Shown: one piece after another, positions 586-64,000 of the stretch | Position numbering within the stretch: position 1 is the first letter of the stretch | Layout of the letters: each line of letters opens with the position of its first letter | Source of the DNA: Vulcanimicrobiota bacterium | GTDB lineage: Bacteria; Vulcanimicrobiota; Vulcanimicrobiia; Vulcanimicrobiales; Vulcanimicrobiaceae | DNA: 64,000 nucleotides | Assembly (NCBI GenBank): GCA_003134035.1 | Contig: PLAE01000249.1 | Coordinates: 2,964-66,963, forward strand | Reading direction: 5' to 3' | Notes under the pieces: model-generated | What the model was told of the DNA's origin: nothing | Database searches by the model: none | The model's input: only the letters and a program-made list of their open reading frames with translations | Translations under genes and position numbers: made by a program

Positions 586-625
586 GGCGAGTGCGTGGTG
601 GATCGCGCGTGGTACATCGGCACTG

Positions 626-1090
626 ATGCCCAGGGGCGTCGAGATCCGGCCGGAGCAGTACTACAAAGCGTCTGTCGAGCGCTTTGCGATGGTCAAGCAT
701 CTGCGCAGCACCGGTCGCGGGGATTCCCCAGTCGCAGCGTATCTCTGCGGCTTATCGGTTGAATGTGCTTTGCGTGCCCTGATCATGCCCGGAACCGAAT
801 TCTACGATCGACACGATTTCGTAATCTTGGCAGGGTCAGGGGCCTTGGATCGCGCCGATGGCGTCGCTCGTAGGCGGCTTGGGGCGCAGCTCAACGAATT
901 GACGGCGTTGTGGCGAAATTCTCTGAGGTTTTATTCGGACGAGCTATTTGCGGCGTTTTGCCGTAAACGGGTTCGGTCACTCGGCTTGTCCGTCCGGCGC
1001 GGATCTAGCCCCGTCTCCTTAATGTGCGCACGGCTTTTTGACGTCTCGGACCTTGCATTTACGGAGTGTGCGCGGTTATGGCTAGAGTGA
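626..1090 (+). CDS. Hypothetical all-helical protein, tentatively HEPN-like
   Basis: ORF 281..1090 trimmed to ATG 626 (MPRGVEIRPEQYY), 40 nt after the RHH stop. 'AAYLCGLSVECALRALI...EFYDRHDFVILAG' resembles the HEPN helix/His region, but no clean Rx4-6H motif is present. Confidence 0.45.
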   Translation: MPRGVEIRPEQYYKASVERFAMVKHLRSTGRGDSPVAAYLCGLSVECALRALIMPGTEFYDRHDFVILAGSGALDRADGVARRRLGAQLNELTALWRNSLRFYSDELFAAFCRKRVRSLGLSVRRGSSPVSLMCARLFDVSDLAFTECARLWLE

Positions 1091-1371
1091 AGATCGACGT
1101 TTCCAGCAAGCTCGATGTTCTCGGGCCCTGGGACGAGCCCATCAAGAAAGCTGTCCGTGATGCAATGCCGGGAGCGAAGCCGTCTTTTACGATGCTGCCG
1201 ATGGGGCGCGCGGCGTTGGTGGTCTTATGGCCGGGATTCAAGGGCCGCGACGTGACCGAGCGACAGGAGCAGGTTCACGATACCGTTGCGGAATTGGGCG
1301 ACGACGCCTTGGACCGCGTCACGATGATCGTCGCGCTCACGCCCGAAGAAGCCCGGCGGGGCGACGATTAG
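1078..1371 (+). CDS. Hypothetical small protein
   Basis: ORF 1066..1371 trimmed to ATG 1078 (MARVKIDVSS). It overlaps the preceding ORF end by 13 nt, suggesting translational coupling. No family recognised. Confidence 0.4.
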   Translation: MARVKIDVSSKLDVLGPWDEPIKKAVRDAMPGAKPSFTMLPMGRAALVVLWPGFKGRDVTERQEQVHDTVAELGDDALDRVTMIVALTPEEARRGDD

Positions 1372-1397
1372 AAGTTTGCTCCTAATCTAGTCTAGGA

Positions 1398-1422
1398 GGC
1401 TGTCGGGCTTTGCCCGACAGCC
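1398..1422. other. Perfect 11-bp stem-loop (GGCTGTCGGGC-TTT-GCCCGACAGCC)
   Basis: Read directly from the sequence 27 nt after the 1371 stop. No U-tract follows, so terminator function is uncertain. Confidence 0.6.
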
Positions 1423-1429
1423 GACGACG

Positions 1430-1478
1430 GGCGGCTTGCGGCGAAGCCGCAAACGCGGCGGGTCGACGAAGTCCACCC
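1430..1478. repeat. Double-hairpin intergenic repeat, copy A
   Basis: GGCGGCTTGCGGCGAAGCCGCAAACGCGGCGGGTCGACGAAGTCCACCC. It aligns base for base with copies at 29462 and 40375. Confidence 0.8.
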
Positions 1479-1664
1479 AGTAGACGGCGGGCCTGGTCGC
1501 CGTTGGTTAGCGATTCGTGCTGTTCCTTGTGGCCAATCGGCAATCGGCGAAGCGCATTTCGATTCCACGCTCGAACGTATTTCGCGCCGCAGCTCTTGGG
1601 GTGCACTTTGCGTCGGCACACGCCGATAACGGTCGGTGTAAGCTTCCAAGGGGAAAGAGCAACT

Positions 1665-1949
1665 ATGGACGTCCCGCAAGACCTGGACGCGTTTCTCGCG
1701 GAGCTGTTGAACAGCTCTGCCGAAAAGAAACTGGGTCGACGCCTCGACCTCGATGCGGACGATCGCGCGTTCGTCGAGCGCATCCTGGAATCGGTGACGA
1801 CCGGGAGTAAAGCCGTGTTCGTCGTCCTGCATCCCAACGATCGTTTACAGTACATGCTGCTTAACGCAAATCGGGTGAATGCCGTGGCCCTCTTGAGCGA
1901 GGTCATACTCCGCACGGCGCAAGCGCTGAGATCGGACCTGGATAGCTAA
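1665..1949 (+). CDS. Hypothetical protein
   Basis: ORF 1410..1949 trimmed to ATG 1665 (MDVPQDLDAF), preceded by GGGGAAAGAG. The upstream part of the ORF runs through the repeat and hairpin. No family recognised. Confidence 0.4.
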   Translation: MDVPQDLDAFLAELLNSSAEKKLGRRLDLDADDRAFVERILESVTTGSKAVFVVLHPNDRLQYMLLNANRVNAVALLSEVILRTAQALRSDLDS

Positions 1950-2148
1950 AAACGGCGCGAGACTAGGTTCGTGTGCCGCACCGAGCTTCGGGCTCCGCCA
2001 AGACCTCGGTTCCGCCGAGACTGCGCTGCGTCAACGGATTGTGGAGCAGGTAGCAGCCCCGCGAACACGAGGCGTGTGTCGCTCCTGGGCGGGGCGGGTA
2101 CGATTCAAACGCCGGTGCGTGGCGCATCGCCCGGCGGGAGGAAACGAT

Positions 2149-2451
2149 ATGCCCAAGAAGCGTTGGTCGGCGGATGTTACGGCGCACAGCGACGCGCTCG
2201 ATCTCGAGCCGAAGGTCTTTGCCGGCGACGATCCGCGCGCAATTGCAAGCTCCCTCAAACACTCCGCCGACGAGAGCCTCCGGCGCAAGAGCGACCCGTA
2301 CCGGTCGGCGATGTCGATGCTGACGTTCTATCTCAACCGGGCGGGAAAAAACGTACCGGCGAGCCGCCGAGCGGTCTTGCAGCGAGCGAAAAACGAACTG
2401 CGCGCGCTGTACGGACGAACGGTGGCAAAAGGCGCTAAAAAGCCGCGTTGA
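2149..2451 (+). CDS. DUF3175 family protein
   Basis: ORF 2041..2451 trimmed to ATG 2149 after GGAGGA. 'KKRWSADVTAHSDALDLEPKVF...DPYRSAMSMLTFYLNRAGKN' matches my recollection of DUF3175. Confidence 0.75.
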   Translation: MPKKRWSADVTAHSDALDLEPKVFAGDDPRAIASSLKHSADESLRRKSDPYRSAMSMLTFYLNRAGKNVPASRRAVLQRAKNELRALYGRTVAKGAKKPR

Positions 2452-2532
2452 CCCCTCTAGCGGGACTAAGGTCATGGGCAGAAGGACCGCGCGCAACGGT
2501 TTTCTGCACCCCGGCCGGTTAAAACTTGAAGC

Positions 2533-2988
2533 ATGCTTGCAAACACTCCGCCGCCGCGCCTGCCCGCAAAGCGCCTGAATCCCCTCAAGCGCGGCGGCGG
2601 CGGCTTGATGCTGGCGGCCGTCATCGTCATCGCGCTCACGATCGCCGCGGCGGGCGGACTTTACGGCTACGGTCCCAGCCGAGCACCGGACACACAGGCC
2701 GTGGCCATGGAGCCGGCCGGCGGCGCGAGCTTTCACGACGCGCAGCGGAGCGGCCCCAACGGCAGCGGGGGCGGCGGCGGCGGATTTGCCGCGGATGACA
2801 CCCATATGTTCCACGGCTACCCCTGCACGGTTGACTGTTCGGGGCACAAGGCCGGCTACAACTGGGCCAAGGACCAGGGGATTACCGAAGCCGCGCGTTG
2901 CCCGATCGCGCCGGCCAACTTAATGTCGCTGACCGAAGGCTGCTGGGCCGAAACCGGTCGCGACGGACCATACGCGCAAGGGCGTTGA
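2533..2988 (+). CDS. Membrane-anchored hypothetical protein with a Cys motif
   Basis: N-terminal hydrophobic helix (LMLAAVIVIALTIAAAGGL), a Gly run, then 'GYPCTVDCSGHKAGYNWA'. No function known to me. Confidence 0.55.
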   Translation: MLANTPPPRLPAKRLNPLKRGGGGLMLAAVIVIALTIAAAGGLYGYGPSRAPDTQAVAMEPAGGASFHDAQRSGPNGSGGGGGGFAADDTHMFHGYPCTVDCSGHKAGYNWAKDQGITEAARCPIAPANLMSLTEGCWAETGRDGPYAQGR

Positions 2989-3244
2989 CTCGCGGCGTTC
3001 CAGGCGGCGCGCCGAGCTGTTTCCGAGGCTGACGCGCTGATTCCACCGGTCGCGATCGTATACTCCGAACACGCCGTATCGTTACCGTTCTACCTGCTGG
3101 GCCGCTCCACGGCGGTCAACGACGACCTCAAGGACTTCGAACCGCTGCCCGGGATCGCAAGTTGGTGGAACGCCTGGCAGTGGTCGATTTGACGGGTAGG
3201 CGGCAGGTTTCCCGATCCGGCAGCGGGCACGTCTGCAACTTTCG

Positions 3245-4078
3245 GTGAGCAGCGTGGCCCGACGATCATTCTCCGCGCGCGCGTCGGCCGTCAAAGCGCA
3301 TCCGGCGGCAGGCCTAACGTTGATCCTGGGAGCGATGCCCTCGGAGGTTCGCTCGATCTCAGCCGCGCTCGTCGAACGCAAAGACGGGCAACTCGCCTGC
3401 TTTCCCTACGCGCGCGGGCGGCTCAACGGACGCCGGGCCATCGTCGCGGTTACCGGCGTCGGCGTGACGAACGGCGCGATGGTCAGCGCGCTCTTCATCA
3501 ACGCGTTCGCTCCCGCGCAGGTGATCGTGTCGGGAACGGGCTCGCGCTTCAATCCGCGCGTGCGCACCGGCGACACGGTCATCTCGACCAAGACGATTCA
3601 CCACGCCGCGGGCAGCCTCACCAATGACGGCATGGTGTACCGCAAGGTGCGCGGCCCGCTGACGGGCGCCATGACGGCGTGGTTTTACAAACCCGACCCC
3701 GCCCTCTTCGCCCTCGCGCGCGCCTCGATTGCCGGCTACGAAGCAAACGAGATTACCGTCGACGGCTTGCGCTACCGTCCCGCGGTGTTCCCCGGCGTCG
3801 TTACCGCGAGCGACCTCTTTGGCGTCTCCGACGAGAAGATTGCCGACATGCAGAGCAAATTGCAGCCCGATATCATGGAGATGGAAAGCGCGGCGATCGC
3901 GCAAGTGTGTCATCAGCTCGCGACACCCCACATCGTCTTCCGCGCCGGCAGCAATCGCACGCAGTCCAATCCCGGCAACGATTATCGCCGCCTCGGCCAG
4001 ATCGCGGCGGCCGCCGCGGCGCGCTGGACGATGTATTTTGTCGGCTGCCTAGCCGCGCGCGAGGCCGGCGCGCGATGA
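3245..4078 (+). CDS. Purine/MTA/SAH nucleosidase family protein (PNP_UDP_1 fold)
   Basis: 'LILGAMPSEV', 'VTGVGVTNGA' and 'DIMEMESAAIAQV' are typical of MtnN-like nucleosidases. GTG 3245 is the longest start; TTG 3320 (MILGAMPSEV) is a plausible alternative. Confidence 0.75.
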   Translation: MSSVARRSFSARASAVKAHPAAGLTLILGAMPSEVRSISAALVERKDGQLACFPYARGRLNGRRAIVAVTGVGVTNGAMVSALFINAFAPAQVIVSGTGSRFNPRVRTGDTVISTKTIHHAAGSLTNDGMVYRKVRGPLTGAMTAWFYKPDPALFALARASIAGYEANEITVDGLRYRPAVFPGVVTASDLFGVSDEKIADMQSKLQPDIMEMESAAIAQVCHQLATPHIVFRAGSNRTQSNPGNDYRRLGQIAAAAAARWTMYFVGCLAAREAGAR

Positions 4079-18871: not shown

Positions 18872-18952
18872 CAAATACAGCATCTGCTTGGTACACTTAG
18901 CACATGAGAATTTTCCGCCTCGAATAAATCGGCGGAGGAAGAGTAGAACACC

Positions 18953-43809: not shown

Positions 43810-45591
43810 TCAATGCGAGTCGCGCGGAACGCCCATGGTGTGGGTCACGTCGCGGAAAGCCACGGCTGGTTCGAGACAGCCGCCGGTTTCGAGCTGGCCG
43901 ACTTCCTCGCGATAGATTTGCTGCCAGGGCGTCTGGTTTTTCAGCAGCGGCGGTTTCCACGCTCCCCGGCGAGCAGCGATCTCGCTGTCGGGCAGCAGGA
44001 GGTTCACTTCGCGCTTGACGAGATCGATGCGCAATCGGTCGCCGGTGTGCAGCAGTGCGAGTCCGCCGCCGACCGCGGCTTCGGGCGAGACGTGCAGGAT
44101 CGACGGGCTCGCCGACGTTCCGCTCTGCCGCCCGTCGCCCATCGTCGGCAGATTTAGAATGCCGCGCTTGACCAGCGCGTCGGGCGGGGTCATGTTCACC
44201 ACTTCGGCTGAGCCGGGGAAACCGACCGGGCCGCAGTTGCGGATGACGAGGATCGCGTGGTCGTCGATTTCGAGCGCCGGATCGTTGATGCGCTCGTGAT
44301 AGTCTTCGGGCCCCTCGAAGACGATCGCCCGCGCCACGTAGGCGTTCGGATCGGCCGGATCGCTGAGATGACGCTGGCGAAAGTCCGCGCTGATCACGCT
44401 CGTCTTCATGATCGCCGAGTCGAAAAAATTGCCCCGCAGGACCAGAAAGCCGGCTTCTTCGACGAGCGGATCGCTGAAGGGCCGGATGACGGCGTGGTTG
44501 GTGCTGCGCGCCGCACCGACGTTTTCGCCGACGCTGCGCCCGGTGACCGTCAGCGCTTGGGGATGCAGTTTACCGGCCGCGAAGAGTTCGCCCATCACCG
44601 CGGGCACGCCGCCGGCGCGATGGTAGCCCTCACCTAAATATTCGCCCGCCGGCTGGCAATTGACGAGCAGCGGTATGGGGTGGCCGAGCCGCTGCCAATC
44701 GTCGAGATCGAGCGCAACGCCGATGTGGCGGGCGATCGCGATGAGATGCGGCACGCAATTCGTCGAGCCGCCGATCGCCGCTGCGACGACGATCGCGTTC
44801 TCGAATGCGGCGCGCGTCATGATCTTGGCCGGCGTAAGATCCTCGAGCACCATGTCGACGATCCGGCGCCCGGTCTCGTACGCGATCTGCCCGCGTTCGC
44901 GATACGGCGCCGGGATCGCCGCGCAGCCGGGCAACGACATCCCGAGCGCCTCGGCGAGCGAGTTCATCGACGTCGCCGTGCCCATCGTATTGCAGTGTCC
45001 GGCGCTGGGCGTTGACGAAGCGACAAGGTCGATGAATTGCTCGCTGTCGATCTTCCCCGCCGCCAGCAGTTCGCGCGCTTCCCAGACGATCGTCCCCGAT
45101 CCGGCGAGACGGTTCTGGTAGTGGCCGTCGAGCATCGGGCCGCCGGAGAGGACGATCGCCGGCAACCCGACGGTCCCGGCCGCCATCAGTGCCGCGGGTG
45201 TCGTCTTATCGCAGCCCGTCGTGAGCACGACGCCGTCGAGCGGGTAGCCGTAGAGAACCTCGACCAAACCCAAGTACGCCAGATTCCGGTCGAGCGCCGC
45301 GGTCGGCCGTTTGCCGGTCTCTTGCAGCGGATGGACGGGGAACTCCATCGGCACGCCGCCCGCCGCGCGGATGCCGTCGCGCACGCGTTCGGCGAGTTGG
45401 ATATGGTGCCGGTTGCACGGCACCAGGTCGTTGCCGGTTTGGGCGATCCCGATGATCGGCTTGCCGGACTGCAGTTCGCCGCGGGTCAACCCATAGTTCA
45501 GAAAGCGCTCCAAATAGAGCGCGGTCATGCTCGGGTTATGCGAATTGGTGAACCACTGCCGGCTGCGCAGCGTCGGGTTGGCGTCGCTCAT
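43810..45591 (-). CDS. IlvD/Edd family dehydratase (sugar-acid dehydratase type)
   Basis: ORF trimmed to ATG 45591 (MSDANPTLRS). 'TTGCDKTTPA' and 'GHCNTMGTA' are present. The N-terminus resembles arabonate/xylonate dehydratases more than IlvD. Confidence 0.88.
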   Translation of the reverse strand: MSDANPTLRSRQWFTNSHNPSMTALYLERFLNYGLTRGELQSGKPIIGIAQTGNDLVPCNRHHIQLAERVRDGIRAAGGVPMEFPVHPLQETGKRPTAALDRNLAYLGLVEVLYGYPLDGVVLTTGCDKTTPAALMAAGTVGLPAIVLSGGPMLDGHYQNRLAGSGTIVWEARELLAAGKIDSEQFIDLVASSTPSAGHCNTMGTATSMNSLAEALGMSLPGCAAIPAPYRERGQIAYETGRRIVDMVLEDLTPAKIMTRAAFENAIVVAAAIGGSTNCVPHLIAIARHIGVALDLDDWQRLGHPIPLLVNCQPAGEYLGEGYHRAGGVPAVMGELFAAGKLHPQALTVTGRSVGENVGAARSTNHAVIRPFSDPLVEEAGFLVLRGNFFDSAIMKTSVISADFRQRHLSDPADPNAYVARAIVFEGPEDYHERINDPALEIDDHAILVIRNCGPVGFPGSAEVVNMTPPDALVKRGILNLPTMGDGRQSGTSASPSILHVSPEAAVGGGLALLHTGDRLRIDLVKREVNLLLPDSEIAARRGAWKPPLLKNQTPWQQIYREEVGQLETGGCLEPAVAFRDVTHTMGVPRDSH

Positions 45592-45627
45592 CGTGCTCCT
45601 CGCGCGGCGTGCGCGCATCCGATGAGG

Positions 45628-46026
45628 TTACGCCGAATGCGGCTCGAATTCCAGCGCCAGGGAGTTGATGCAATAACGCTGGCCCGTCGGCGCCGGACCA
45701 TCGTCGAAAACGTGGCCGAGATGCGAGCCGCACGGCTTGCAGCGCACTTCCGTCCGCACCATGCCGTGCGAGCGATCCGCGACCAATTCGACGTTTTCCG
45801 CATCGCCGGGCGCAAAAAAGCTCGGCCAGCCGCTGCCGCTTTCGTACTTGGCATCCGACGAGAAAAGCAACGCCTTACAAGCCCCGCAATGATACGTGCC
45901 GGTCGCTTTGTTGTGGTAGAGTTCGCCGCTGAAGGGACGCTCGGTGGCGGCTTGCCGCAAAACCGCAAACTTCTCGGCGGGGAGTTCTTCGCGCCATTGC
46001 GCGTCGGTTTTCTTCACACTGATCAC
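45628..46026 (-). CDS. msrB: Peptide-methionine (R)-S-oxide reductase
   Basis: 'CGAC...', 'SGSGWPSF' and 'CKPCGSHLGHVF...RYCINS' are present. Confidence 0.9.
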   Translation of the reverse strand: MISVKKTDAQWREELPAEKFAVLRQAATERPFSGELYHNKATGTYHCGACKALLFSSDAKYESGSGWPSFFAPGDAENVELVADRSHGMVRTEVRCKPCGSHLGHVFDDGPAPTGQRYCINSLALEFEPHSA

Positions 46027-46150: not shown

Positions 46151-46963
46151 TTATCGGTGAGCCGCCAGCCGCCGGGCGAACGTCAATGCGATTGCAATCG
46201 CAGCCAACGTCCCCGCCAGGGTGAACGCGGCAACGATTTGCGCGTCGTCGTAGAGGTTGGAAATTTGCAGCGAGACCGTGTCGGTCAAACCGCGAATGCG
46301 CCCCGAGATGACCGCGACGGCGCCGAATTCGCCCATCGCGCGCGCGTTGCAGAGCAGCACGCCGCTGACGAATGCGCTCCGGATGGACGGAAAGGTGACC
46401 CGCCGGAACGCCTGCCAGGTGCTCGCGCCGAGCGCGATCGCCGCTTCCTCGAGTTCGCGACCTTGATCGCTCATGAGCGCGATCAGTTCGCGCGCCACGT
46501 ACGGAAACGTCACGAAGATCGTCGCGATCACGATTCCCGGCCGGGCGAAGGCGATCGGGACGCCGTGGTGCGCAAACCAGGCGCCCAACGGCGAGCGCGT
46601 ACCGAACGTCAAGAGCAGCGCGAGGCCCGCGACGACCGGCGAGACGGTCAGCGGGAGATCGATGAGCGCCTGCAGCGCCGCTTTGCCCGGGAAGCGATAC
46701 TTCGTGAGCGTCCAGGCGGCAATCAGACCGAAGGCCGCGTTGAACGCCACGGCGATTGCCGCGGCAACGATCGTGAGCCAGATGGCCGCTTGCGACTCGC
46801 GGTCGGCGAACGTCGCGAGCAGCGGACCAATGCCGGACCGTCCGGCTTCGTAGACGATCTGGGCGACCGGCGCAAGGATGAAGACGATCAGCAGCAGTCC
46901 GGCCAGGCCGATCGCTGCGGCGCCCCGGCCGAACCCGGGCCGGCGGGTGCCGGTCGCGGTCAC
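46151..46963 (-). CDS. cysW: Sulfate ABC transporter permease CysW
   Basis: This is the C-terminal ~270 codons of ORF 46151..47419, with the permease EAA loop 'EEAAIALGASTWQAFRRVTFP'. GTG 46963 start is uncertain. Confidence 0.8.
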   Translation of the reverse strand: MTATGTRRPGFGRGAAAIGLAGLLLIVFILAPVAQIVYEAGRSGIGPLLATFADRESQAAIWLTIVAAAIAVAFNAAFGLIAAWTLTKYRFPGKAALQALIDLPLTVSPVVAGLALLLTFGTRSPLGAWFAHHGVPIAFARPGIVIATIFVTFPYVARELIALMSDQGRELEEAAIALGASTWQAFRRVTFPSIRSAFVSGVLLCNARAMGEFGAVAVISGRIRGLTDTVSLQISNLYDDAQIVAAFTLAGTLAAIAIALTFARRLAAHR

Positions 46964-46983
46964 GCGCGGGTTTGCGGCGAGGA

Positions 46984-47808
46984 TTACAGCGTCGTCCGCG
47001 CCAGCGTCATGCGGCGCTGGAACCCGTTGATCGCGAGCAGCATCGCGAACGACACCGCGAGCAGCACGACGGCGATCGCCGCGGCACCGGCATAATCGTA
47101 CTCTTCGAGCCGGGTCACGATGAGCAGCGGCGCGATCTCGGTGCGGCCCGGAATATTGCCCGCGATGAAGATGACCGACCCGTATTCGCCCAGCGTGCGT
47201 GCCAGCGCGAGCGTGAACGCGGTGAGCAGCGCCGGGCCCAGCAGCGGCAGGGTGACACGCCAAAAGGTCGTCCACTCGCCCGCGCCCAGCGACGCGGCCG
47301 CCTCGCTGAATGCCGCGGGCAATTGGGCCAGCGGCTCTTGAACCGTTCGAACGACGAAGGGAAAGGCGACGAACGTCAGCGCGACCACGATTCCGAGCTG
47401 GGTGTTCGCGACGTGCCACCCGTGCGCCTCGAGCCAGGCGCCGAAGGCGCCGTGCGCGCCGTACAGCACGGCGAGTGCGATGCCCGTGACCGACGGCGGC
47501 AGCGCGAACGGGATGTCGATGAGCGCGTCGAGCGCGGCTCGGCCCGGGAAGCGGTAGCGCGCCAGGACCCAGGCCACGTAGAGGCCGGCGAACACATCGA
47601 CGATCGAGGCCCCGAGCGCGCTCCCGACGGTCAGCCGCAACGCCGCGAGCGCGCGCGGTGTGAGAACGGCGCCGGCGAACGTCGCGGGGGTCGTGCCGTG
47701 CAGTGCGAGCACCAGCGAGGCCAGCGGCAGGATCACCACGGCCGCGACGAGGACGAGCGTCGTTCCAAGCAGCAGCGGCCGACCGCCGATGGGGTCGCGG
47801 CGCCTCAC
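46984..47808 (-). CDS. cysT: Sulfate ABC transporter permease CysT
   Basis: These are the last 274 codons of ORF 46984..49278. GTG 47808 overlaps the sbp stop (GTGA). '[21 protein letters not shown]' is present. Confidence 0.85.
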
Positions 47809-48812
47809 TTTCCCGAGATCTGGTCGAAGACGCCGCCGTCGGCGAAAAAGCGGGCTTGGGCGCTGTTCCAGCCGCCGAAGCTGGCGATCGTTACGAGGTC
47901 CGTGCGCGGAAACGACGTGCCGCACGAGCCGAGCACGGCCGTGAGCGTCGGGCGATACCCGAACTTGCAGGCCAGCCGCTGCGCCGCCGGCGTGTAGAGA
48001 AACTCCAGGTAGGCTTTGGCGGCGGCGGCCGTGCCGTGGCGTTGCACGTTGGCATCGACCCAGGCGACGGACGGTTCGGCCAAGATGCTGACCGACGGGA
48101 CGACGATCTCGTACGCGCCGGGCTGCGCTTGGGTGATGAAGTGGGCCTCGTTCTCCCAGGCCACGAGCACGTCGCCGATGCCGCGCTCGACGAACGTCGT
48201 GGTGGACCCGCGCGCACCGCTGTCGAGGACGCCGACGTTCTTGTAGAGCGCCGTGACGAACTCGCGCGCTTTGGCATCGTCGTTGTGGTTGCGCTTGAGC
48301 GCATAGGCGTACGCGGCCAAGAAATTCCAGCGCGCGCCGCCGCCCGTCTTCGGGTTGGCGGTGACGACGCCGATTCCGGGTGCGACGACGTCGTTCCAAT
48401 CGCGGATGTGTTTGGGGTTGCCTTTCCGCACGACGAGCACGATCGTCGACGTGTACGGGCTGGAGTCGTGCGGCAGCCGGCTTTCCCAGTCGGTTGCGAT
48501 CGCGCCGCTCTTCTTGGCGATCGCGTCGATGTCGTAGGCTAGAGCCAGCGTCACCACGTCGGCGTCGAGCCCCTCGATCACGGCGCGCGCCTGCGCGCCC
48601 GAACCGCCGTGCGACTGGTTCACCGTCACCGTTTGACCGGTCTTCGACTTCCAATAGGCCGCGAAAAGCGGGTTGAAGGCGGCATAGAATTCGCGCGTCG
48701 GATCGTACGATACGTTGAGCAGCGTGAGGTTGGGCGAATCGGCGGCGCCAACCGGCGCGGCGAGCATGAGGAGGATCGCGATGAGGGCCGCGGCGCGGCT
48801 GCGGTTCGGCAT
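47805..48812 (-). CDS. Sulfate/thiosulfate-binding protein
   Basis: Signal peptide plus '[13 protein letters not shown]' and '[13 protein letters not shown]', typical of Sbp/CysP. Confidence 0.88.
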
Positions 48813-48818
48813 CTGCGC

Positions 48819-49796
48819 CTAGCTCGCCGCCGCGAACGAGTGCGCGTGGCGCGGCGAGAGAAAGATGCGGCTGCCGGGGCGCGGTTCCAGCCGCTGCGCT
48901 TCGACGTCGCTGATCTCGGCGTTGACGGTTTGGCCATCGTCGGTATACACGTCGAGCGCGACCCGCCAGCCCAACGCGGCGACTCGCCGTACCACGCCGG
49001 GAAGCGAACCGGCAAAGGGCCGGTCGTCCACGACGAACTCGTGCGGCCGCACGTAGACCGCCAAGTGGTCCGCGCCCTGCAGCAGGTTCGCGTTGCCGAA
49101 GAAGCGCATCGCAAACGGCGTTTGTGGCGCGGCATATAACTCGCTGGGCGTCCCGGTTTGCACGATCCGTCCGTCTTCGAGCAGCACGATCCGGTCGGCG
49201 AGTTCCATCGCTTCGTCGGCGTCGTGCGTGACGAGGATCGTCGTCACGTGGGTGCGCTCGTGCAATTCGCGCAGCCAAGCCCGCAGTTCGCGCCGCACGT
49301 GCAGATCGAGGGCGGCAAACGGTTCGTCGAGCAGCAAGATCGACGGTTCGGCGGCCAGCGCGCGGGCCAGCGCGACGCGCTGCCGCTGTCCGCCGGAGAG
49401 TTCGCGCGGCAGCCGCGCGCCGTAGCCGTCGAGTCGCACGAGTGCGAGCAGTTCGGCGACGCGGCGCGCGGTTTGCTCACGCTGCGTTCCGCGCACGTCG
49501 AGCGCGAAGCCGACGTTCTGGGCGACCGTCATGTGCGGGAAGAGCGCGTAGTGCTGGGCGACGAAACCGATGCCGCGCTTGCGGGCGGGGACGTTCGAGA
49601 CGTCGCTGCCGTCGATCCGGATCAACCCCGCATCGGCGTGATCGAAGCCGGCGATGATGCGCAGCAGCGTCGATTTCCCGCACCCCGACGGCCCGAGCAA
49701 CGCGACGAGCGTGTTGCGTTCGATGGTGACGTCGATGTCGCTCAGCGCGCGCACCGGACCGTGCGACTTGGCGACGCCCGCGAGGACGATGCTCAT
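48819..49796 (-). CDS. cysA: Sulfate ABC transporter ATP-binding protein
   Basis: Walker A 'GPSGCGKST', signature 'LSGGQRQR' and Walker B 'LLLDEP' are present, with a TOBE-like C-terminus. Confidence 0.88.
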   Translation of the reverse strand: MSIVLAGVAKSHGPVRALSDIDVTIERNTLVALLGPSGCGKSTLLRIIAGFDHADAGLIRIDGSDVSNVPARKRGIGFVAQHYALFPHMTVAQNVGFALDVRGTQREQTARRVAELLALVRLDGYGARLPRELSGGQRQRVALARALAAEPSILLLDEPFAALDLHVRRELRAWLRELHERTHVTTILVTHDADEAMELADRIVLLEDGRIVQTGTPSELYAAPQTPFAMRFFGNANLLQGADHLAVYVRPHEFVVDDRPFAGSLPGVVRRVAALGWRVALDVYTDDGQTVNAEISDVEAQRLEPRPGSRIFLSPRHAHSFAAAS

Positions 49797-50335
49797 GCCG
49801 CGACGGCCGCGCCGAGGTATCCGGCGCTTTGGAGATGTTCGAGGATCGCCGCAACGCTCTGAGCGACGGTTTGACCACGGCTGTCGACGATCACCTCGGG
49901 TGTCGCCGGCTCTTCGTACGGATCGTTCACTCCGGTAAAATGGGCGATCTCGCCGCGCAGGGCTCGCGCGTAAAGGCCCTTGGGGTCGCGCCGAGCGAGT
50001 TCGTCGAGCGGGCAGCGCACATAGACCTCGACAAAATCGCCGATCGTCGCGCGGGCGGCCTCGCGAGCGGCGGCATAGGGCGAAATCGCCGCCGTAATTG
50101 CGATGACGCCGTTGCGCGTCAACAGCTTGGCGACGAAAGCGATTCGCGCGATATTGGTGTCACGGTCCGCGCGGGAAAAGCCCAGATCGGCCGAGAGGTA
50201 TTCACGCACTTCATCGCCGTCGAGGATCTCGACGGCCCGGCCGCGGGCCACCAACTCGTCGCGCAACTGCCCCGCAATCGTCGATTTTCCCGCGCCGGAC
50301 AGCCCGGTCAGCCAGATCGTCACACCCTGCGGCAC
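49793..50335 (-). CDS. cysC: Adenylylsulfate (APS) kinase
   Basis: 'WLTGLSGAGKSTIA', 'LDGDEVR' and 'RADRDTNI' are present. Start is GTG 50335, and the 3' end overlaps cysA by 4 nt. Confidence 0.9.
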   Translation of the reverse strand: MPQGVTIWLTGLSGAGKSTIAGQLRDELVARGRAVEILDGDEVREYLSADLGFSRADRDTNIARIAFVAKLLTRNGVIAITAAISPYAAAREAARATIGDFVEVYVRCPLDELARRDPKGLYARALRGEIAHFTGVNDPYEEPATPEVIVDSRGQTVAQSVAAILEHLQSAGYLGAAVAA

Positions 50336-50337
50336 CG

Positions 50338-50994
50338 TCAGATCTCCTTGCTTTCACTTGGGTCGACTTTGCTTTCAACTGGATCAACGTTTGTCTTGAG
50401 TAATTCCGGATAGTGCAAACCGCATTCGGTCTTCGCGAATCCGGCCCAGCGGCCGGCGCGCGCATCCTCGCCCGGCTGCACACGACGCGTGCAGGGGACG
50501 CAGCCGATGCTGGCATAGCCGGCATCCGTGAGCGGGTTGTGCGGAATATCGTTCGCGTCGGCGTATGCGGCGATGTCGAGGTCGCTCCACGACGCCAGCG
50601 GGCTGACCTTGAGGAGATTCGAGCCGGCGTCCCAAGCGACGCTCCGCACGGCTTGGCGAGTCGCAATCGTCGTCTGGTGCAGGCCGGTGATCCACGCATC
50701 GTAGTTGGCCAAGAATGCCCGCTGGGGCGCGACCTTGCGCATCGCACAGCAAGCGTCGGGATCGCGCTCCCAGAGCGCTTCGCCGTGCCGGCGCGCCTGA
50801 TCGACGAGCGAGAGTTCGGGCTGCACACCCGTTACCGCGATGCCGTAACGCTCCTCGACTCGCCGGATGAATGCGTAGGTCTCCGCAAACAACAGGCCCG
50901 TGTCGAGGTAGTAAACCGGCAGCTTGGGTTCGATGCGCAGCGCCATGTCGAGCAAAACCAGACCGCCCAAGCCGCCGAAGGAAGCGGCTAGCAC
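50338..50994 (-). CDS. cysH: Fe-S type APS/PAPS reductase (the true N-terminus probably lies upstream, near 51075)
   Basis: 'SFGG', the 'CC' pair in 'DPDACCAMRKV', 'GCVPCT' and 'ECGLH' are present. In-frame conserved sequence 'AEATLHWALRTYRERI' lies upstream of the first canonical start, GTG 50994. Confidence 0.85.
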   Translation of the reverse strand: MLAASFGGLGGLVLLDMALRIEPKLPVYYLDTGLLFAETYAFIRRVEERYGIAVTGVQPELSLVDQARRHGEALWERDPDACCAMRKVAPQRAFLANYDAWITGLHQTTIATRQAVRSVAWDAGSNLLKVSPLASWSDLDIAAYADANDIPHNPLTDAGYASIGCVPCTRRVQPGEDARAGRWAGFAKTECGLHYPELLKTNVDPVESKVDPSESKEI

Positions 50995-51116
50995 GATGCG
51001 CTCGCGATAGGTGCGCAGCGCCCAATGCAGCGTCGCTTCGGCGGAATCGATCGTGGGGGACGGCGAGGTGATGATGGCGGGCCTCTTGGGGAGCGTCGCT
51101 GCCGCGGACGGAGCGC

Positions 51117-51153
51117 GGAAAGAAAAGAAGCCTCGCCGGGCCGGCGAGGCTTC
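51117..51153 (-). terminator. Intrinsic terminator / attenuator in the cysH leader
   Basis: Minus strand reads GAAGCCTCGCC-GGCCC-GGCGAGGCTTC (11-bp stem) followed by TTTTCTTT. It lies about 40 nt upstream of cysH coding sequence. Confidence 0.7.
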
Positions 51154-51195
51154 ATCTCACGAACGTTTTGGCAGACGTTTTATCGCGTGACGAAC

Positions 51196-51258
51196 TTATG
51201 CCGGTCCGACGGAATCGCCGAAGCAACGACATGGGCAACAGCATAATACGTACTGCAT
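51196..51258 (-). CDS. Poly-cysteine mini-ORF (MQYVLCCCPCRCFGDSVGPA), putative Cys-sensing leader peptide
   Basis: 20 codons, with 5 Cys among 7 consecutive codons. The ATG lies 7 nt after the -10 element, suggesting a leaderless mRNA. It sits between the promoter and the terminator. Confidence 0.55.
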   Translation of the reverse strand: MQYVLCCCPCRCFGDSVGPA

Positions 51259-51265
51259 CGGCTCG

Positions 51266-51294
51266 ACCATACCACGGTGCGCACTTGCCGTCAA
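51266..51294 (-). promoter_or_regulatory. Promoter of the cys leader/operon
   Basis: Minus strand reads TTGACG, 17 nt, TATGGT. Confidence 0.5.
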
Positions 51295-51326
51295 TCGTGA
51301 AAGGCAGTGCGGGCAGCGCGGCTTCC

Positions 51327-51356
51327 TTGACGGTTTCCCCGGAATCGTGGTACCGT
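51327..51356 (+). promoter_or_regulatory. Possible promoter of the sir leader
   Basis: TTGACG, 18 nt, TACCGT (weak -10). It lies back to back with the minus-strand promoter. Confidence 0.3.
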
Positions 51357-51365
51357 CCACGCGAT

Positions 51366-51449
51366 ATGACGCAACCGCCCTTTGGCTGTCCGCGTTTGGG
51401 TTGTTGTCGCGTAATGCGGCGGCGTGTCATGTCGGCTTTGTTGCCCTGA
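51366..51449 (+). CDS. Cys-containing mini-ORF (MTQPPFGCPRLGCCRVMRRRVMSALLP), possible leader peptide
   Basis: 27 codons with 3 Cys, including a CC pair. It starts about 10 nt after the candidate -10 and ends 19 nt before a terminator-like hairpin. Confidence 0.4.
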   Translation: MTQPPFGCPRLGCCRVMRRRVMSALLP

Positions 51450-51467
51450 GGGCCGCCGTCGACATGA

Positions 51468-51505
51468 ACCTCCGCCGATGTCCGGCGAAGGTTCTTTTTC
51501 TTGTT
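51468..51505 (+). terminator. Terminator-like hairpin in the sir leader
   Basis: ACCTCCGCCG-ATGTC-CGGCGAAGGT (9 bp with 1 mismatch) followed by TCTTTTTCTTGTT. It lies about 120 nt upstream of the sir ATG. Confidence 0.55.
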
Positions 51506-51605
51506 CCCGGCCCCGCTATTCGGCAACCGCCCCTGCCGGCTACGTTCTGAATCGCCCGATACCTCGCAGTCACGGCGCCGATCCATCACGAGGTCTTGTT
51601 AAGGT

Positions 51606-51635
51606 CTTCCATGAGCAAACTTCCATGAGCAAACT
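51606..51635 (+). repeat. Perfect 14-nt tandem duplication spanning the sir start codon
   Basis: TTCCATGAGCAAAC occurs at 51607..51620 and again at 51621..51634. Confidence 0.9.
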
Positions 51636-53277
51636 CGACGTCGAAGCCGTCAAGGCGAATAGCCAAGGGCTGCGCGGCCCAATCCCGGACGAATTGCAGG
51701 CGCCCACCGACCATTTCGGTGATGAATCGTCGTTACTGCTGAAGTTTCACGGGGTCTATCAGCAAGACGACCGCGATGCGCGAAAGACGATGCGCGAGCG
51801 GGGCGCAGGCCGAGATTTCTCGTTCATGGTGCGGACCAAGAATCCGGGCGGTTTTCTACCGGCGGCCTTCTATTTGGCAATCGATCGGCTCGCCGACGAG
51901 TACGGCAACGGAACGATCCGGGTAACGACGCGCGCCGGTCTGCAGTTGCACGGCGTCCGCAAATCGAATTTGCACGAGGTCATCGCCCAAATCAATGCCC
52001 ACCTAGGTTCGACGCTGGGCGCCTGCGGCGACATCAACCGCAACGTGACGGCCGCGCCGTTTCCGTTCGCTGCGCCGGAGTATGCGGCCGCGCGGACCGC
52101 GGCGGTGGAGATCGCCGAGCTGCTGACCCCACGCGCCACCGCGTACTATGAGATTTGGCAAGACGGGGAAGTCGTGCACTCGACCGAGGCGGCCGAAGAT
52201 CCGATTTACGGCAAAGCGTTTCTGCCGCGCAAGTTCAAGATCGCCGTCGCCGTGCCGGGCGACAACAGCGTCGATCTCTACACGAACGATTTGGGCGTCG
52301 TCCCGCTCGTCGACGACGCGGGCACGCTGCTCGGCTTCAATCTCACCGTCGGCGGCGGCTTGGGCAATACCCACGGCAAAACCGCGACTTATCCGCGGCT
52401 GGCCGATGAATTCGGCTTTGTGCCGCCGGCGCTGCTGCTCGATGCGGTGAAGGCGATCGTCCTCGTCCAGCGCGATCACGGCGATCGAACCAATCGCCGC
52501 CACGCGCGGCTCAAGTATCTGATCGCCGATCGCGGCCTGGCCTGGTTCCGCGCGCAGGTCGAGGCCCAAGCCGGCTTTTCGCTCGAGGCCTGGCGCCCGC
52601 TGCAGGCCTGGACCGCGCCGCAGTTCCTGGGTTGGAACGCCGCCGGCGACGGCACCTGGTTTTACGGCGTCTCGATCGCGAACGGCCGCGTGCGCGACGG
52701 GCTCAAGGCGGCGCTGCGCGACATCGTCGCCGAACTCGGCTGCGATCTCATCGCCACACCCGATCAAAACATCGTCATCGGCGGCATCGCGCCGGCCCTG
52801 CGGCCACGGATCGACGCGATCTTCGCCGCGCACGGCGTGGCCGATCCGCAAATGATCTCGGTGCGCGAAAAAGTCGCCATGGCGTGTCCCGCGCTGCCGA
52901 CGTGCGGCCTCGCGCTGGCCGAGTCCGAACGCGTGCTGCCCAAGCTCGTGGCCGAGATCGATGCGCTGCTCGAGCGGCTGGGCGTCGGCGACCCGGTCAC
53001 GATCCGAATGACCGGCTGTCCCAACGGCTGCGCACGGCCGTACATGGGCGAGATCGGGATCGTCGGCGTCAGCGCCGATCGCTACACGCTTTACCTTGGC
53101 GGTAATCCCGCCTCGACCCGGCTCAACCAAGTCTTCGCCGAAGGCGTGCGCACCGCAGAAATCGCCGGAGTGCTGGCGCCGCTCTTCGAACGCTGGTCCC
53201 GCGAGCGCGCGGCCGGCGAGCCGTTCGGCGACTTCTGCGTGCGCGCCGTCCTCGATCGCGAGAAAGTCGCATCCTAG
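51625..53277 (+). CDS. sir: Sulfite reductase hemoprotein (ferredoxin-dependent NirA/Sir type)
   Basis: ATG 51625 (MSKLDVEAVK). 'LKFHGVYQQDDRD', 'ACGDINRNV' and 'MTGCPNGCARP' (siroheme/4Fe-4S Cys cluster) are present. Confidence 0.88.
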   Translation: MSKLDVEAVKANSQGLRGPIPDELQAPTDHFGDESSLLLKFHGVYQQDDRDARKTMRERGAGRDFSFMVRTKNPGGFLPAAFYLAIDRLADEYGNGTIRVTTRAGLQLHGVRKSNLHEVIAQINAHLGSTLGACGDINRNVTAAPFPFAAPEYAAARTAAVEIAELLTPRATAYYEIWQDGEVVHSTEAAEDPIYGKAFLPRKFKIAVAVPGDNSVDLYTNDLGVVPLVDDAGTLLGFNLTVGGGLGNTHGKTATYPRLADEFGFVPPALLLDAVKAIVLVQRDHGDRTNRRHARLKYLIADRGLAWFRAQVEAQAGFSLEAWRPLQAWTAPQFLGWNAAGDGTWFYGVSIANGRVRDGLKAALRDIVAELGCDLIATPDQNIVIGGIAPALRPRIDAIFAAHGVADPQMISVREKVAMACPALPTCGLALAESERVLPKLVAEIDALLERLGVGDPVTIRMTGCPNGCARPYMGEIGIVGVSADRYTLYLGGNPASTRLNQVFAEGVRTAEIAGVLAPLFERWSRERAAGEPFGDFCVRAVLDREKVAS

Positions 53278-61854: not shown

Positions 61855-64000
61855 ATGAAAGACTCAGTCGAGTATCTGCGCGCCGTCGCGCCGGCGTTCG
61901 ACGAGGCAGGCTTCCTGAGGTCGGTCGTAGTCAACGCCGATGACGCCGTCATTATCACCTCGGCGGCGATGCCGCCCGCGAAATTGCGAATCGTCTACGT
62001 CAATGCGGCCTTCACGCGTCTCACCGGCTATAGCGCGAGCGAAGTCCTCAACGAGTCGCCGCACATGCTGCAGGGCCCGCGCAGCAATCCGGACATCCGG
62101 GCGAAGATGCGTGAGGCGCTCCTGCGGCAGACCTCCGTTACGGCCGAACTGATCAATTATCGCAAAGACGGCCGCGAATATCTCGTCGAGGTCGGTCTTA
62201 CGCCGGTTCTCGATGCCGCCGGCGTCTGCACCCACTGGATCGCGGTCGCACGTGACGTCACCGCGCTGCGGTGCGGCGAAGCCGCCGAAGGCCCCGCGTC
62301 GCGCGACCGGTACACCGCGCTCGTTGCCGAGATCGCCGAGCGCGAACGGGCGGAAAAGCAGTTAGCCTTCAATGCCGCCCACGACGATCTGACCGGCCTC
62401 TACAATCGCGACGTTTTCCTGACCCGCGTCGAGTCGGCGATTGCCCGTGCCGAGGTCGATCCGGCCTACGCGTTCTCCGTTCTCTTGCTGGATATCGACC
62501 GCTTCAAGCAGGTCAACGACCACCTCGGTCATCGCGCCGGCGATCTGGTGCTGCGCGACCTGGCGCGGCGTTTTGACGGCTTGGCCGGCTCGCGCGATAC
62601 GCTGGCGCGCATGGACGGCGACGAGTTCGCCTTGCTCATCGAGATGCCCGACGATCCCGACGAAGCCGTCTCCGTCGCGAACCGAATGATCGTGGAGACG
62701 GCGAATCGGCCGCGCACGGCCGGCGACGACGTCGTTCTCGGCGCGAGCATCGGCATCGTTCACTGGGCAGCGGGGATGCATGACCCCGAACTGCTGCTGC
62801 GCGACGCCCAGACCGCGCTCGCGCGCGCGCAACACACGTGCGGCAGCACCTACGCCGTGTTCACTTCGGAGATGCGCGCGCAGGCCGAGGGCGTGGCCCG
62901 CGTGCGCAAGGAACTGTATGGCGCGTGCGAGCGCGGCGAAATGCGGCTGTATTACCAGCCGCTCGTCGACATCGCCACCGGCGGCGTCTACGGCTTTGAG
63001 GGGTTGGTGCGCTGGCAGCATCCCGAGCACGGGTGGGTGCTGCCCGACCAATTCATTCCGGCGGCCGAGGAGACGGGCTTAATCGTCGAGCTGGGCCGTT
63101 GGGTGCTCATCGAAGGCTGCACAAAGGCCGTCGTGTTTTCGGGTCTGGCCGGCAAGCCGCTGATGATGAGTCTGAACGTCTCAAGTCAGCAGCTCTTGCA
63201 CCCGCACTTTCTCGTTCATCTCAAAGAGGCCCTCGACGTGAGCGGACTCGACCCGGCGACCTTGCAGCTTGAAATCACCGAGAGCGTCTTTCTCGCCGGC
63301 GGCAACGTCGTCGGCGCGGTGTTTGCCGCGATTCGGGCGCTCGGCATTCTCATCGCGTTCGACGATTTCGGGACCGGCTATTCGTCGCTCAGTTATCTTG
63401 AGCGCTTTCAGATCGATACGCTCAAGATTGATAAGTCGTTCGTCGCGCGCATTGACGACACGTCGGCCAAATCCGAGATCTTGCGCATGATTATCGCGCT
63501 CGCGCACGCGTTGGGTGTCGACATCGTCGCCGAAGGCGTCGAGAGCCGCGCGCAGCGCGATGCGCTCGGCCGCCTTGGCTGCACGCATCTGCAAGGGTAT
63601 CTTTTCAGCCGTCCGATCAGTGAAACGGCCGTGACCGAACTACTCGGATCGTCCGCGGCGCATGCCGAACTCGATACGCTGCTAAAGGAAACCTTGACCG
63701 ACGTCGGTTCTGCGGTTCTCTCCGAGGAGCAGCGGACAGAATTGCGGGTTCAGGTCGACCACGCGATCGAGGCGCATTACGTCTGGCTAGATCGCTTGCA
63801 GACGGCGGTGAAGACCGGCCGATCGGTCTTTGACCTAGCTGAAGTTGCGCGCGAAGATCTGTGTCCGATTGGGGTTTGGCTCAATTCGACGATCTCGGAA
63901 GCGCTGCGCACGATGCCGCTGTACTACGTGACGAAATCCCGTCACGCCGTCTTTCACCGCAGTATGGCCCGGCTGCTCGCCGCGACGGTCGCCGGCCGGC
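61855..64000 (+). CDS. PAS - degenerate GGDEF - EAL - CZB (chemoreceptor zinc-binding) signalling protein, 3'-truncated by the window end
   Basis: My own translation from ATG 61855; it is absent from the ORF track because no stop lies in the window. PAS 'NAAFTRLTGYSASEV', GGDEF site 'MDGDEF', EAL 'FEGLVRW...DDFGTGYSS...KIDKSF...EGVE', and CZB 'HYVW-25 aa-CPIGVW-21 aa-HAVFH'. An in-frame ATG at 61753 is possible, but the codons between look non-coding. Confidence 0.85.
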   Translation, partial: MKDSVEYLRAVAPAFDEAGFLRSVVVNADDAVIITSAAMPPAKLRIVYVNAAFTRLTGYSASEVLNESPHMLQGPRSNPDIRAKMREALLRQTSVTAELINYRKDGREYLVEVGLTPVLDAAGVCTHWIAVARDVTALRCGEAAEGPASRDRYTALVAEIAERERAEKQLAFNAAHDDLTGLYNRDVFLTRVESAIARAEVDPAYAFSVLLLDIDRFKQVNDHLGHRAGDLVLRDLARRFDGLAGSRDTLARMDGDEFALLIEMPDDPDEAVSVANRMIVETANRPRTAGDDVVLGASIGIVHWAAGMHDPELLLRDAQTALARAQHTCGSTYAVFTSEMRAQAEGVARVRKELYGACERGEMRLYYQPLVDIATGGVYGFEGLVRWQHPEHGWVLPDQFIPAAEETGLIVELGRWVLIEGCTKAVVFSGLAGKPLMMSLNVSSQQLLHPHFLVHLKEALDVSGLDPATLQLEITESVFLAGGNVVGAVFAAIRALGILIAFDDFGTGYSSLSYLERFQIDTLKIDKSFVARIDDTSAKSEILRMIIALAHALGVDIVAEGVESRAQRDALGRLGCTHLQGYLFSRPISETAVTELLGSSAAHAELDTLLKETLTDVGSAVLSEEQRTELRVQVDHAIEAHYVWLDRLQTAVKTGRSVFDLAEVAREDLCPIGVWLNSTISEALRTMPLYYVTKSRHAVFHRSMARLLAATVAGR

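Follow-up and report, generated by a model that had tools for sequence, protein, structure and literature searches.

How might a bacterium match the transcription of its sulfate-assimilation genes to its supply of cysteine? The question is raised by the intergenic region upstream of cysH in a 64,000-nucleotide stretch of a Vulcanimicrobiota genome (contig PLAE01000249.1, positions 2,964 to 66,963; "the window" hereafter means this whole stretch of analysed DNA), where an initial annotation, made from the sequence alone, had pointed to a short, cysteine-rich leader open reading frame (sORF) and an intrinsic terminator on the minus strand. All the leader elements that it named were found where it had placed them, by minus-strand reading and a consensus scan. 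Its proposal that a leader ORF, probably leaderless, senses cysteine and acts through an intrinsic terminator gains support from the conservation of this arrangement, from the frame bias of the cysteine codons (TGY) and from a predicted antiterminator whose formation depends on ribosome position. On this computational evidence, we consider it likely that the cysH leader is a ribosome-mediated, trpL-type transcription attenuator that responds to cysteine by way of charged tRNA-Cys. The leader elements are as follows, with the A of ATG 51258 counted as nucleotide (nt) 1.

51294-51289, minus strand: -35 hexamer TTGACG of the cysH-leader promoter (consensus scan; TTGAC followed by G, C or T at the same position in all related leaders)
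51266..51274, minus strand: extended -10 element, TGG plus TATGGT (hexamer 51271-51266; consensus scan; relatives all have TAnnnT 17-18 nt past the -35)
51196..51258, minus strand: leader sORF MQYVLCCCPCRCFGDSVGPA, 20 codons, from ATG 51258 to TAA 51198-51196 (orthologous sORFs in about 28 loci)
51243-51223, minus strand: putative regulatory cysteine codons 6, 7, 8, 10 and 12 (TGC TGT TGC CCA TGT CGT TGC), the proposed ribosome stalling site
51189..51207, minus strand: antiterminator 5' strand, nt 52-59 plus 65-70, across the final sORF codons and their stop (folding; alignment)
51158..51187, minus strand: inner hairpin of the antiterminator, nt 72-101 (folding; alignment)
51153-51127, minus strand: intrinsic terminator hairpin GAAGCCTCGCCG-GCC-CGGCGAGGCTTC (stem scan; conserved pairing)
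51126-51117, minus strand: U-tract TTTTCTTTCC, directly 3' of the hairpin

The minus-strand reading bears out the promoter with its 17-nt spacer between -35 and -10, the ATG beginning 7 nt past the -10, the five cysteines in seven codons and the stop at 51196. The hairpin likewise begins 42 nt past the sORF stop, as described, although its computed stem has 12 pairs, nine of them G-C, around a 3-nt loop, rather than the 11 pairs counted before; together with TTTTCTTT it ends about 41 nt ahead of cysH. The 5' arm and loop of the terminator (51153-51139), plus 51156-51154 just upstream, constitute the antiterminator 3' strand, such that the two structures share the same RNA.

The cysteine run is not a product of chance. 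At least five cysteines in seven codons occur at this locus alone among the 919 sORFs of 8-40 amino acids on both strands of the window, and shuffling the window 100 times with its dinucleotides preserved yielded not one sORF with five in seven; cysteine makes up 2.6% of triplets over the six frames and 1.2% of codons in the window's genes. Strong terminator-like sites number eight in the 64 kb, both strands summed, and the cysH-leader terminator is among the strongest of them. Taken alone, the promoter match lacks significance (one site, with 0.4 expected), and draws its significance from being conserved in relatives.

In the mechanism that we propose, transcription would begin at or within a few nt of ATG 51258, allowing a 70S ribosome to load directly on the 5' AUG. 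With Cys-tRNA plentiful, this ribosome would pass the five cysteine codons and reach the stop (nt 61-63), covering nt ~46-73 and with them the antiterminator 5' strand; the hairpin (nt 106-132) and U-tract would then form, and RNA polymerase would terminate about 40 nt ahead of cysH. With Cys-tRNA scarce, the ribosome would stall at codons 6-12 (nt 16-36), leaving nt 52-70 free to pair with nt 103-120, so that the terminator would be blocked and the operon for sulfate uptake, adenosine 5'-phosphosulfate (APS) kinase and APS/3'-phosphoadenosine 5'-phosphosulfate (PAPS) reductase would be transcribed.

Furthermore, we identified a second putative cysteine attenuator, absent from the initial annotation, which occupies 51327-51503 on the plus strand as a mirror image of the first, 32 bp from the first -35 hexamer.

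51327..51356, plus strand: second promoter, TTGACG (51327-51332), 18 nt, TACCGT (51351-51356); same arrangement in relatives
51366..51449, plus strand: second leader sORF MTQPPFGCPRLGCCRVMRRRVMSALLP, with cysteine codons 8, 13 and 14, all TGT, and ATG 51366 9 nt past the -10 (orthologues include MTKPSCRCSESMCCRGQLRRRFILE)
51466..51503, plus strand: second terminator, GAACCTCCGCCG-ATGTC-CGGCGAAGGTTC then TTTTTCTTG (hairpin 51466-51494; terminator scan)
51625..53277, plus strand: sir, ferredoxin-type sulfite reductase (Pfam NIR_SIR, NIR_SIR_ferr)

The stop codon of this second sORF lies at 51447-51449 and its cysteine codons fall within 51387-51407. Its predicted antiterminator reaches -34.5 kcal/mol with the ribosome at the cysteine codons versus -2.9 kcal/mol with the ribosome at the stop, and the sir-side arrangement is also present in L001, L081 and 10 further relatives. 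The plus-strand copy would control the sulfite reductase gene in the way described for cysH; since both sulfate-assimilation transcription units have their own cysteine leader, they would respond to one signal.

Conservation and cysteine specificity

We used CysH to scan one genome collection and one metagenome collection, which gave 12 unique loci, and added 12 closer homologues (70-81% identity) via their contigs to build a usable alignment. The closest cysH loci come from metagenome-assembled genomes (MAGs) of Vulcanimicrobiota (Eremiobacterota/WPS-2), namely Candidatus Velthaea (70% identity) and Ca. Elarobacter, so the host is not an actinobacterium. About 28 distinct loci bear the promoter, sORF and terminator directly upstream of cysH or sir-cysH; the alignment of homologous upstream regions that the initial annotation had recommended thus reveals in-frame cysteine codons and a hairpin kept throughout this set. 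The promoters of these relatives read TTGACN, 17-18 nt, TAnnnT, mostly with TG before the -10, and their ATG follows the -10 by 6-10 nt, most often 7, without a Shine-Dalgarno sequence. This promoter-ATG distance, fixed across relatives, is an indirect argument that the sORF is probably leaderless. The sORFs have 19-29 codons with 2-5 cysteines and are followed by a GC hairpin, a U-run and then cysH. Cysteine occupies codons 6, 7, 8 and 10/11 in most of the 15 closest sequences, while the other residues drift between subfamilies (examples are MKLLACCCAPCLGGPIGSA, MISLAAACPGACCLCAESPETA, MFRPICRLGRSACCARCQSAGAQ and MLSRHRLHAACCRCRPPRSAP). For L005, a first-pass sORF, MVPCTCCSFAVS, was dropped in favour of the promoter-anchored sORF MLLVRCLMMVCTTG... 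at that locus.

The arrangement extends beyond this phylum. In Acidobacteriota, sir...cysH operons carry a promoter, an ATG 6-10 nt past the -10, an sORF with 5-10 cysteines (for example MSDSCNFCAMCCCTCCCCACVRTGAGRLLT) and a terminator, ACCCACCGCCAG...CTGGCGGTGGGT, as seen in L013, 16, 21, 22, 23, 25, 32, 35, 40, 41, 42, 49 and 53 (positions about 550-3800). Leaders are likewise present in three MAGs labelled Binatia (L063), Limnocylindria (L009) and Rhodospirillales (L010), and L149 grouped with the acidobacterial leaders, which constitute a well-conserved family of their own. The leaders of L009 and L010 are very like the Vulcanimicrobiota type, making mis-binning or gene transfer possible. 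Seven acidobacterial-type leaders gave -22 to -33 kcal/mol with the ribosome stalled versus -0.6 to -3.9 kcal/mol at the stop; the conserved C-termini of this type, such as ..SGAGGLLT, mimic the terminator 3' arm, and would therefore serve as the antiterminator strand. Among the loci scanned, those of Mycobacteriales and Nocardioides produced no match to the combination of promoter, sORF and terminator.

We then scanned about 160 loci for a promoter followed by a start codon and an ORF of at most 46 amino acids. This pattern matched 51 times. A terminator was present in 43 matches, 39 of which had at least two cysteines (up to 10), whereas six of the eight matches without a terminator had no cysteine at all. 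Three identical residues within seven codons were found in 38 sORF-terminator units for cysteine, as compared with 0-3 for each of eight other two-codon amino acids. Moreover, TGY triplets in 34 leaders numbered 156 in the sORF frame versus 52 and 18 in the other frames, and this frame-specificity places the signal at the level of translation and not of RNA sequence alone. The leaders also favour TGT (44 TGT versus 16 TGC in the 15 close leaders, 94 versus 62 in all 34), which is the rare cysteine codon among the window's genes (34 TGC versus 5 TGT). Such a preference for a rare codon would be expected of a stalling sensor, and the Salmonella leu leader with its rare CUA codons is a precedent.

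Alternative pairings and ribosome position

To follow the predicted switch in silico, we folded solely the RNA left free behind a ribosome at a given position. With the ribosome at the last cysteine codon, the fold joins nt 52-59 (codons 18-20) to nt 114-120 as well as nt 65-70 to nt 103-108, enclosing the inner hairpin of nt 72-101 in a structure of -26.6 kcal/mol in total that takes up 7 of the 12 bases of the terminator 5' arm together with the terminator loop. With the ribosome at the stop codon, the partner strand is covered and the remaining fold amounts to -7.6 kcal/mol. In the minimum free energy (MFE) structure of the full leader, all 12 terminator pairs are kept in the absence of a ribosome or with a terminating ribosome, and all 12 are lost with a ribosome stalled at codon 12. 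Folding, which the initial annotation had suggested as a way of finding mutually exclusive structures, thus yields either terminator or antiterminator as set by ribosome position. The antiterminator that it had picked out by eye, CGGCGA (codons 13-15) with TCGCCG, is not the main one: this helix has only 6-7 pairs and lies within the footprint of a ribosome at codon 12, and we have replaced it by the pairing of nt 52-70 with nt 103-120. The energy gained by pairing with the terminator arm, -14.9 kcal/mol, was reached by none of 300 dinucleotide shuffles of the upstream segment (-6.0 +/- 2.3 kcal/mol).

In line with these folds, 15 close relatives gave means of -25.3 kcal/mol stalled, -7.1 at the stop and -21.2 for an isolated terminator hairpin. 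In alignment A3, made up of 15 close sequences, 87% of cells in the antiterminator are paired versus 30-47% in slid controls (the structure having been taken from the window sequence, which gives it an advantage over those controls), and its covariation score is 0.159 versus 0.123 +/- 0.011 (0 of 500). In the inner hairpin, helices 3 and 4 are 93-95% paired, with two compensatory pairs in helix 3. The terminator is paired in 96.6% of cells and scores 0.206 versus 0.155 +/- 0.014 (0 of 500), with compensatory changes at two pairs; kinship among the sequences inflates shuffle statistics. The column pair 55:121 joins a base of the sORF to a base of the terminator loop, is free of constraint from the terminator itself, and is UG in 9 sequences, UA in 4 and CG in 2, hence always pairable. 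In addition, the L085/87/88 subfamily has a different terminator arm, GGGGCUCUCGCG, which matches a different sORF tail, GAGCCC; its own duplexes reach -19 to -23 kcal/mol versus -10 to -12 kcal/mol for cross-family duplexes. The same cross-pairing control does not discriminate among the subfamilies that have a common CGCCG arm.

Several observations weigh against this interpretation. The core helix CGGC(G):(C)GCCG is near-invariant, which leaves little strict compensatory covariation in the antiterminator (changes on both sides at three pairs and in six cells), and RNAalifold applied to 7 diverse leaders returned a consensus of only 8 pairs. No clear pause hairpin that could synchronise polymerase and ribosome was identified in the leader. 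Some relatives have poor U-tracts (L002, L087) and others just two cysteine codons (L004, L005, L179). Finally, wherever the ribosome is placed, thermodynamics favours the terminator in more distant relatives, and the gain of their antiterminator over shuffles is weak (z about -1), which means that antitermination in these leaders would need to be under kinetic control. In E. coli, too, the trp terminator surpasses the antiterminator in stability and kinetics decides between the two; by this analogy, it seems reasonable to suggest that an equilibrium preference for the terminator does not disqualify these distant leaders as attenuators. The thermodynamic switch predicted by our folding is claimed for the close clade only.

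Competing explanations and known systems

The sORF could also sense cysteine with an output that is translational or Rho-dependent, in which case stalling would expose the ribosome-binding site of cysH, and the hairpin would have a structural role only. This is how the only experimentally studied poly-Cys leaderless sORFs operate (bioRxiv 10.1101/834739), and it could draw as well on the weak U-tracts noted above and on the window's full-leader MFE fold, in which the terminator 3' arm and first U's (GGCUUCUU, 51132-51125) pair with the cysH Shine-Dalgarno region (AAGAGGCC, 51087-51080) in perfect complementarity. We nevertheless judge it improbable, given that the cysteine tract pairs locally and not with the Shine-Dalgarno sequence, that the sORF tail complements the 5' arm and loop of the terminator instead, and that the GC hairpin and U-run, one of just eight strong sites in 64 kb, are kept in nearly all members. 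To a similar degree, we think it improbable that the unit is an independent small gene, encoding a functional cysteine-rich micropeptide (for example a metal- or sulfur-binding one) or a small RNA, with cysH expressed separately. Its possession of its own promoter and terminator would suit such a gene, as would the C-terminal residues (..PGG..GSA / RSA), which are fairly conserved in the closest clade, with third-position changes. However, these conserved codons are exactly the antiterminator strand; outside the cysteine codons the peptides are wholly different between subfamilies; sulfur-assimilation genes always follow the unit immediately and in the same orientation; the consensus scan found no other sigma-70-like promoter between the terminator and cysH; and the rare TGT codon suits a sensor, not an expressed protein.

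S-box/S-adenosylmethionine (SAM) riboswitches control many sulfur genes in other phyla, and the leader folds more stably than its shuffles (z = -2.8), as would befit a metabolite- or protein-binding riboswitch or antiterminator target in which the cysteine codons are incidental to RNA structure. Against this, Rfam 15 returned nothing relevant even at E <= 10 in 50500-52000 and no match at gathering score in the whole window plus 13 related loci, the stretch from sORF to terminator is variable and only 42 nt long, TGY enrichment is confined to the frame set by the ATG, and the cysteine codons shift position between subfamilies yet stay in frame; we regard such an element as highly improbable. 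That chance should have brought a promoter-like match together with a cysteine-rich frame and a hairpin in GC-rich intergenic DNA, where spurious ORFs are many and the promoter alone is unremarkable, has a negligible probability in our view: shuffling yields no such sORF, and the idea is effectively refuted by an architecture that recurs across about 28 diverged loci and is present two times in the window. We therefore return to a trpL-type attenuator as the preferred explanation.

Classical leader-peptide attenuators of amino-acid operons include trpL, hisL, leuL, thrL and pheL of E. coli and Salmonella. Like these, the cysH leader has a short ORF rich in codons for the end product and an intrinsic terminator ahead of the first structural gene; its antiterminator 5' strand would be accessible during stalling at the regulatory codons and hidden beneath a ribosome at the stop codon, and its terminator roughly equals or exceeds the antiterminator in stability, such that the decision would be partly kinetic. 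Unlike them, it is specific for cysteine, apparently leaderless (without a Shine-Dalgarno sequence), lacks an obvious 1:2 pause hairpin, belongs to a Vulcanimicrobiota host and occurs as two divergent copies in one intergenic region.

The initial annotation had also mentioned poly-Cys leaderless sORFs in mycobacteria as attenuators. They exist (e.g. Ms5788A), but the mechanism is a different one: the Cys tract pairs with a downstream Shine-Dalgarno sequence, which is unmasked without any terminator, and control is translational (bioRxiv 10.1101/834739; Mol Microbiol 114:93). The authors (Canestrari 2020) stress that there is no terminator/antiterminator competition in these units, and state that no upstream ORF (uORF)-mediated attenuation for cysteine was known beforehand (bioRxiv 10.1101/834739). 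The cysH leader resembles the mycobacterial units in having an sORF with consecutive cysteine codons upstream of cysteine/sulfur genes, and a leaderless start is probable for this sORF. It differs from them in a Cys tract that folds locally and not with a Shine-Dalgarno sequence, in a conserved terminator and antiterminator, in its phylum, and in showing no evident peptide similarity. The 'ribulon' idea proposed for mycobacteria holds that several poly-Cys units per genome answer one signal (bioRxiv 10.1101/834739), an idea that the paired cysH/sir leaders echo. Comparative genomics had earlier predicted actinobacterial Cys leader peptides, encoded by short ORFs that contain Cys-codon runs upstream of cys operons, with no conserved or obvious terminator hairpin and a suggested Rho dependence (Seliverstov 2005, PMC1262725); in the cysH leader, by contrast, the terminator is the most conserved part. 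A predicted ribosome-mediated transcription attenuator, uORFC-8-2, places cysteine codons in a uORF ahead of a terminator stem and U-run upstream of Rhodobacterales cysS; the two codons stand in tandem around position 14-15, within the first stem of a pair (Brewer 2021, PMC8632094). It shares only the general attenuator logic with the cysH leader: uORFC-8-2 is alphaproteobacterial and concerns cysteinyl-tRNA synthetase, whereas the cysH leader would control sulfate assimilation, has its cysteine codons at 6-12 and shows no sequence relationship. Our literature search, which was incomplete in coverage, turned up no description of a Cys leader with a terminator at sulfate-assimilation operons or in Vulcanimicrobiota or Acidobacteriota.

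The principle is thus a textbook one, and the mechanism itself would not surprise a specialist, while its cysteine version in little-studied soil phyla appears to be undescribed; what is new is its specificity for cysteine, together with a probably leaderless design, a pair of divergent copies and a range that takes in several poorly known phyla. To our knowledge, cysteine has long been a conspicuous gap among the amino acids with classical leader-peptide attenuators. If our interpretation is true, a trp-style terminator/antiterminator switch does exist for cysteine and runs on leaderless mRNA, and it would represent the common mode of sulfate-assimilation control in abundant, almost uncultured soil phyla, although it would overturn no principle. 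We are evenly divided on a broader proposal, namely that these leaders constitute the first recognised family of classical Cys attenuators and form a ribosome-sensed cysteine regulon in no fewer than two soil phyla (Acidobacteriota as well as Vulcanimicrobiota, with the Limnocylindria- and Binatia-labelled MAGs in addition), in which each sulfate-assimilation unit (cysH operon, sir, or sir...cysH) has its own leaderless, rare-TGT poly-Cys sORF and the conserved, weak AUC/AUU start of cysH in Vulcanimicrobiaceae adds a further layer of control. The leaders would also offer sequence-level evidence for leaderless translation in Vulcanimicrobiota and Acidobacteriota, as well as a compact, roughly 140-nt sensor suited to trial in a heterologous host.

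Downstream genes, start codons and further candidates

Pfam matches agree with the genes given for the minus strand behind the leader in the initial annotation.

50338..51087, minus strand: cysH (APS/PAPS reductase), including Shine-Dalgarno AAGAGG 51087-51082 and an apparent ATC start at 51075-51073 (Pfam PAPS_reduct, 5e-41)
49793-50335, minus strand: cysC (Pfam APS_kinase)
48819-49796, minus strand: cysA (Pfam ABC_tran and TOBE)
47805-48812, minus strand: sbp (Pfam SBP_bac_11)
46151-47804, minus strand: permease genes (Pfam BPD_transp_1)

From cysC to the permeases, the remainder of the operon thus covers 46151..50335. On these Pfam matches, the products of the genes behind the first leader (cysH, cysC and the sulfate ABC transporter) and of the sulfite reductase gene behind the second serve to supply the amino acid that would be sensed. 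After the cys operon come msrB (45628-46026) and ilvD (43810-45618), also on the minus strand; in L161 and L179, msrB-ilvD lie directly behind cysH without cysC or transporter genes, showing that operon content behind the leader varies.

The cysH gene of the window has no ATG, GTG or TTG start; instead, orthologue N-termini align to ATC 51075, 6 nt past AAGAGG. ATC or ATT stands at the aligned start in 11 of 12 analysable close relatives, ATG in L179 and GTG in L002/L011. This conserved AUY codon looks like a weak initiation codon of cysH. Gene callers begin these CysH proteins farther downstream, and the 100%-identical P0001 is only 210 amino acids long. The pairing of GGCUUCUU with AAGAGGCC described above may mask the Shine-Dalgarno sequence in antiterminated transcripts, or may be a mere match of U-rich to purine-rich sequence; we set aside such sequestration as a shared feature, since it was seen in the window's MFE fold and was not common to the MFE folds of 11 other leaders.

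As for sir, we take its real start to be ATG 51625 and not the mechanically called GTG 51424, because similarity to L001 begins there, the relatives are called at 549-553 amino acids, and the leader lies inside the mechanical ORF, which crosses the sORF region and terminator in another frame. The start-codon annotation of both cysH and sir would be corrected in these genomes on this basis. A 14-nt near-repeat, CATGAGCAAACTTC / CATGAGCAAACTCG, lies at 51610-51637, around the sir start codon.

A few other sites came to light in these scans. A terminator-like site at 45887-45867, suspected of belonging to an ilvD leader, falls inside the msrB coding sequence, and a promoter-like site at 18904 proved to be the ordinary promoter of a small gene with a Shine-Dalgarno sequence; both were discarded. 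In L087, positions 1025-1180 hold an extra promoter, an sORF (MSFRREVLCCRSIPARRFGVRPR, with two tandem cysteines) and a terminator, 1.3 kb upstream of the cysH leader; this unit precedes an ORF whose His-box motifs are those typically seen in membrane fatty-acid desaturases, a gene without any obvious link to sulfur. Finally, at 62575-62611 on the plus strand of the window, TTGACG, 19 nt, TACGCT and a further 7 nt lead to the ATG of an ORF of at least 463 amino acids, a candidate leaderless protein-coding gene that is consistent with leaderless expression in this host.

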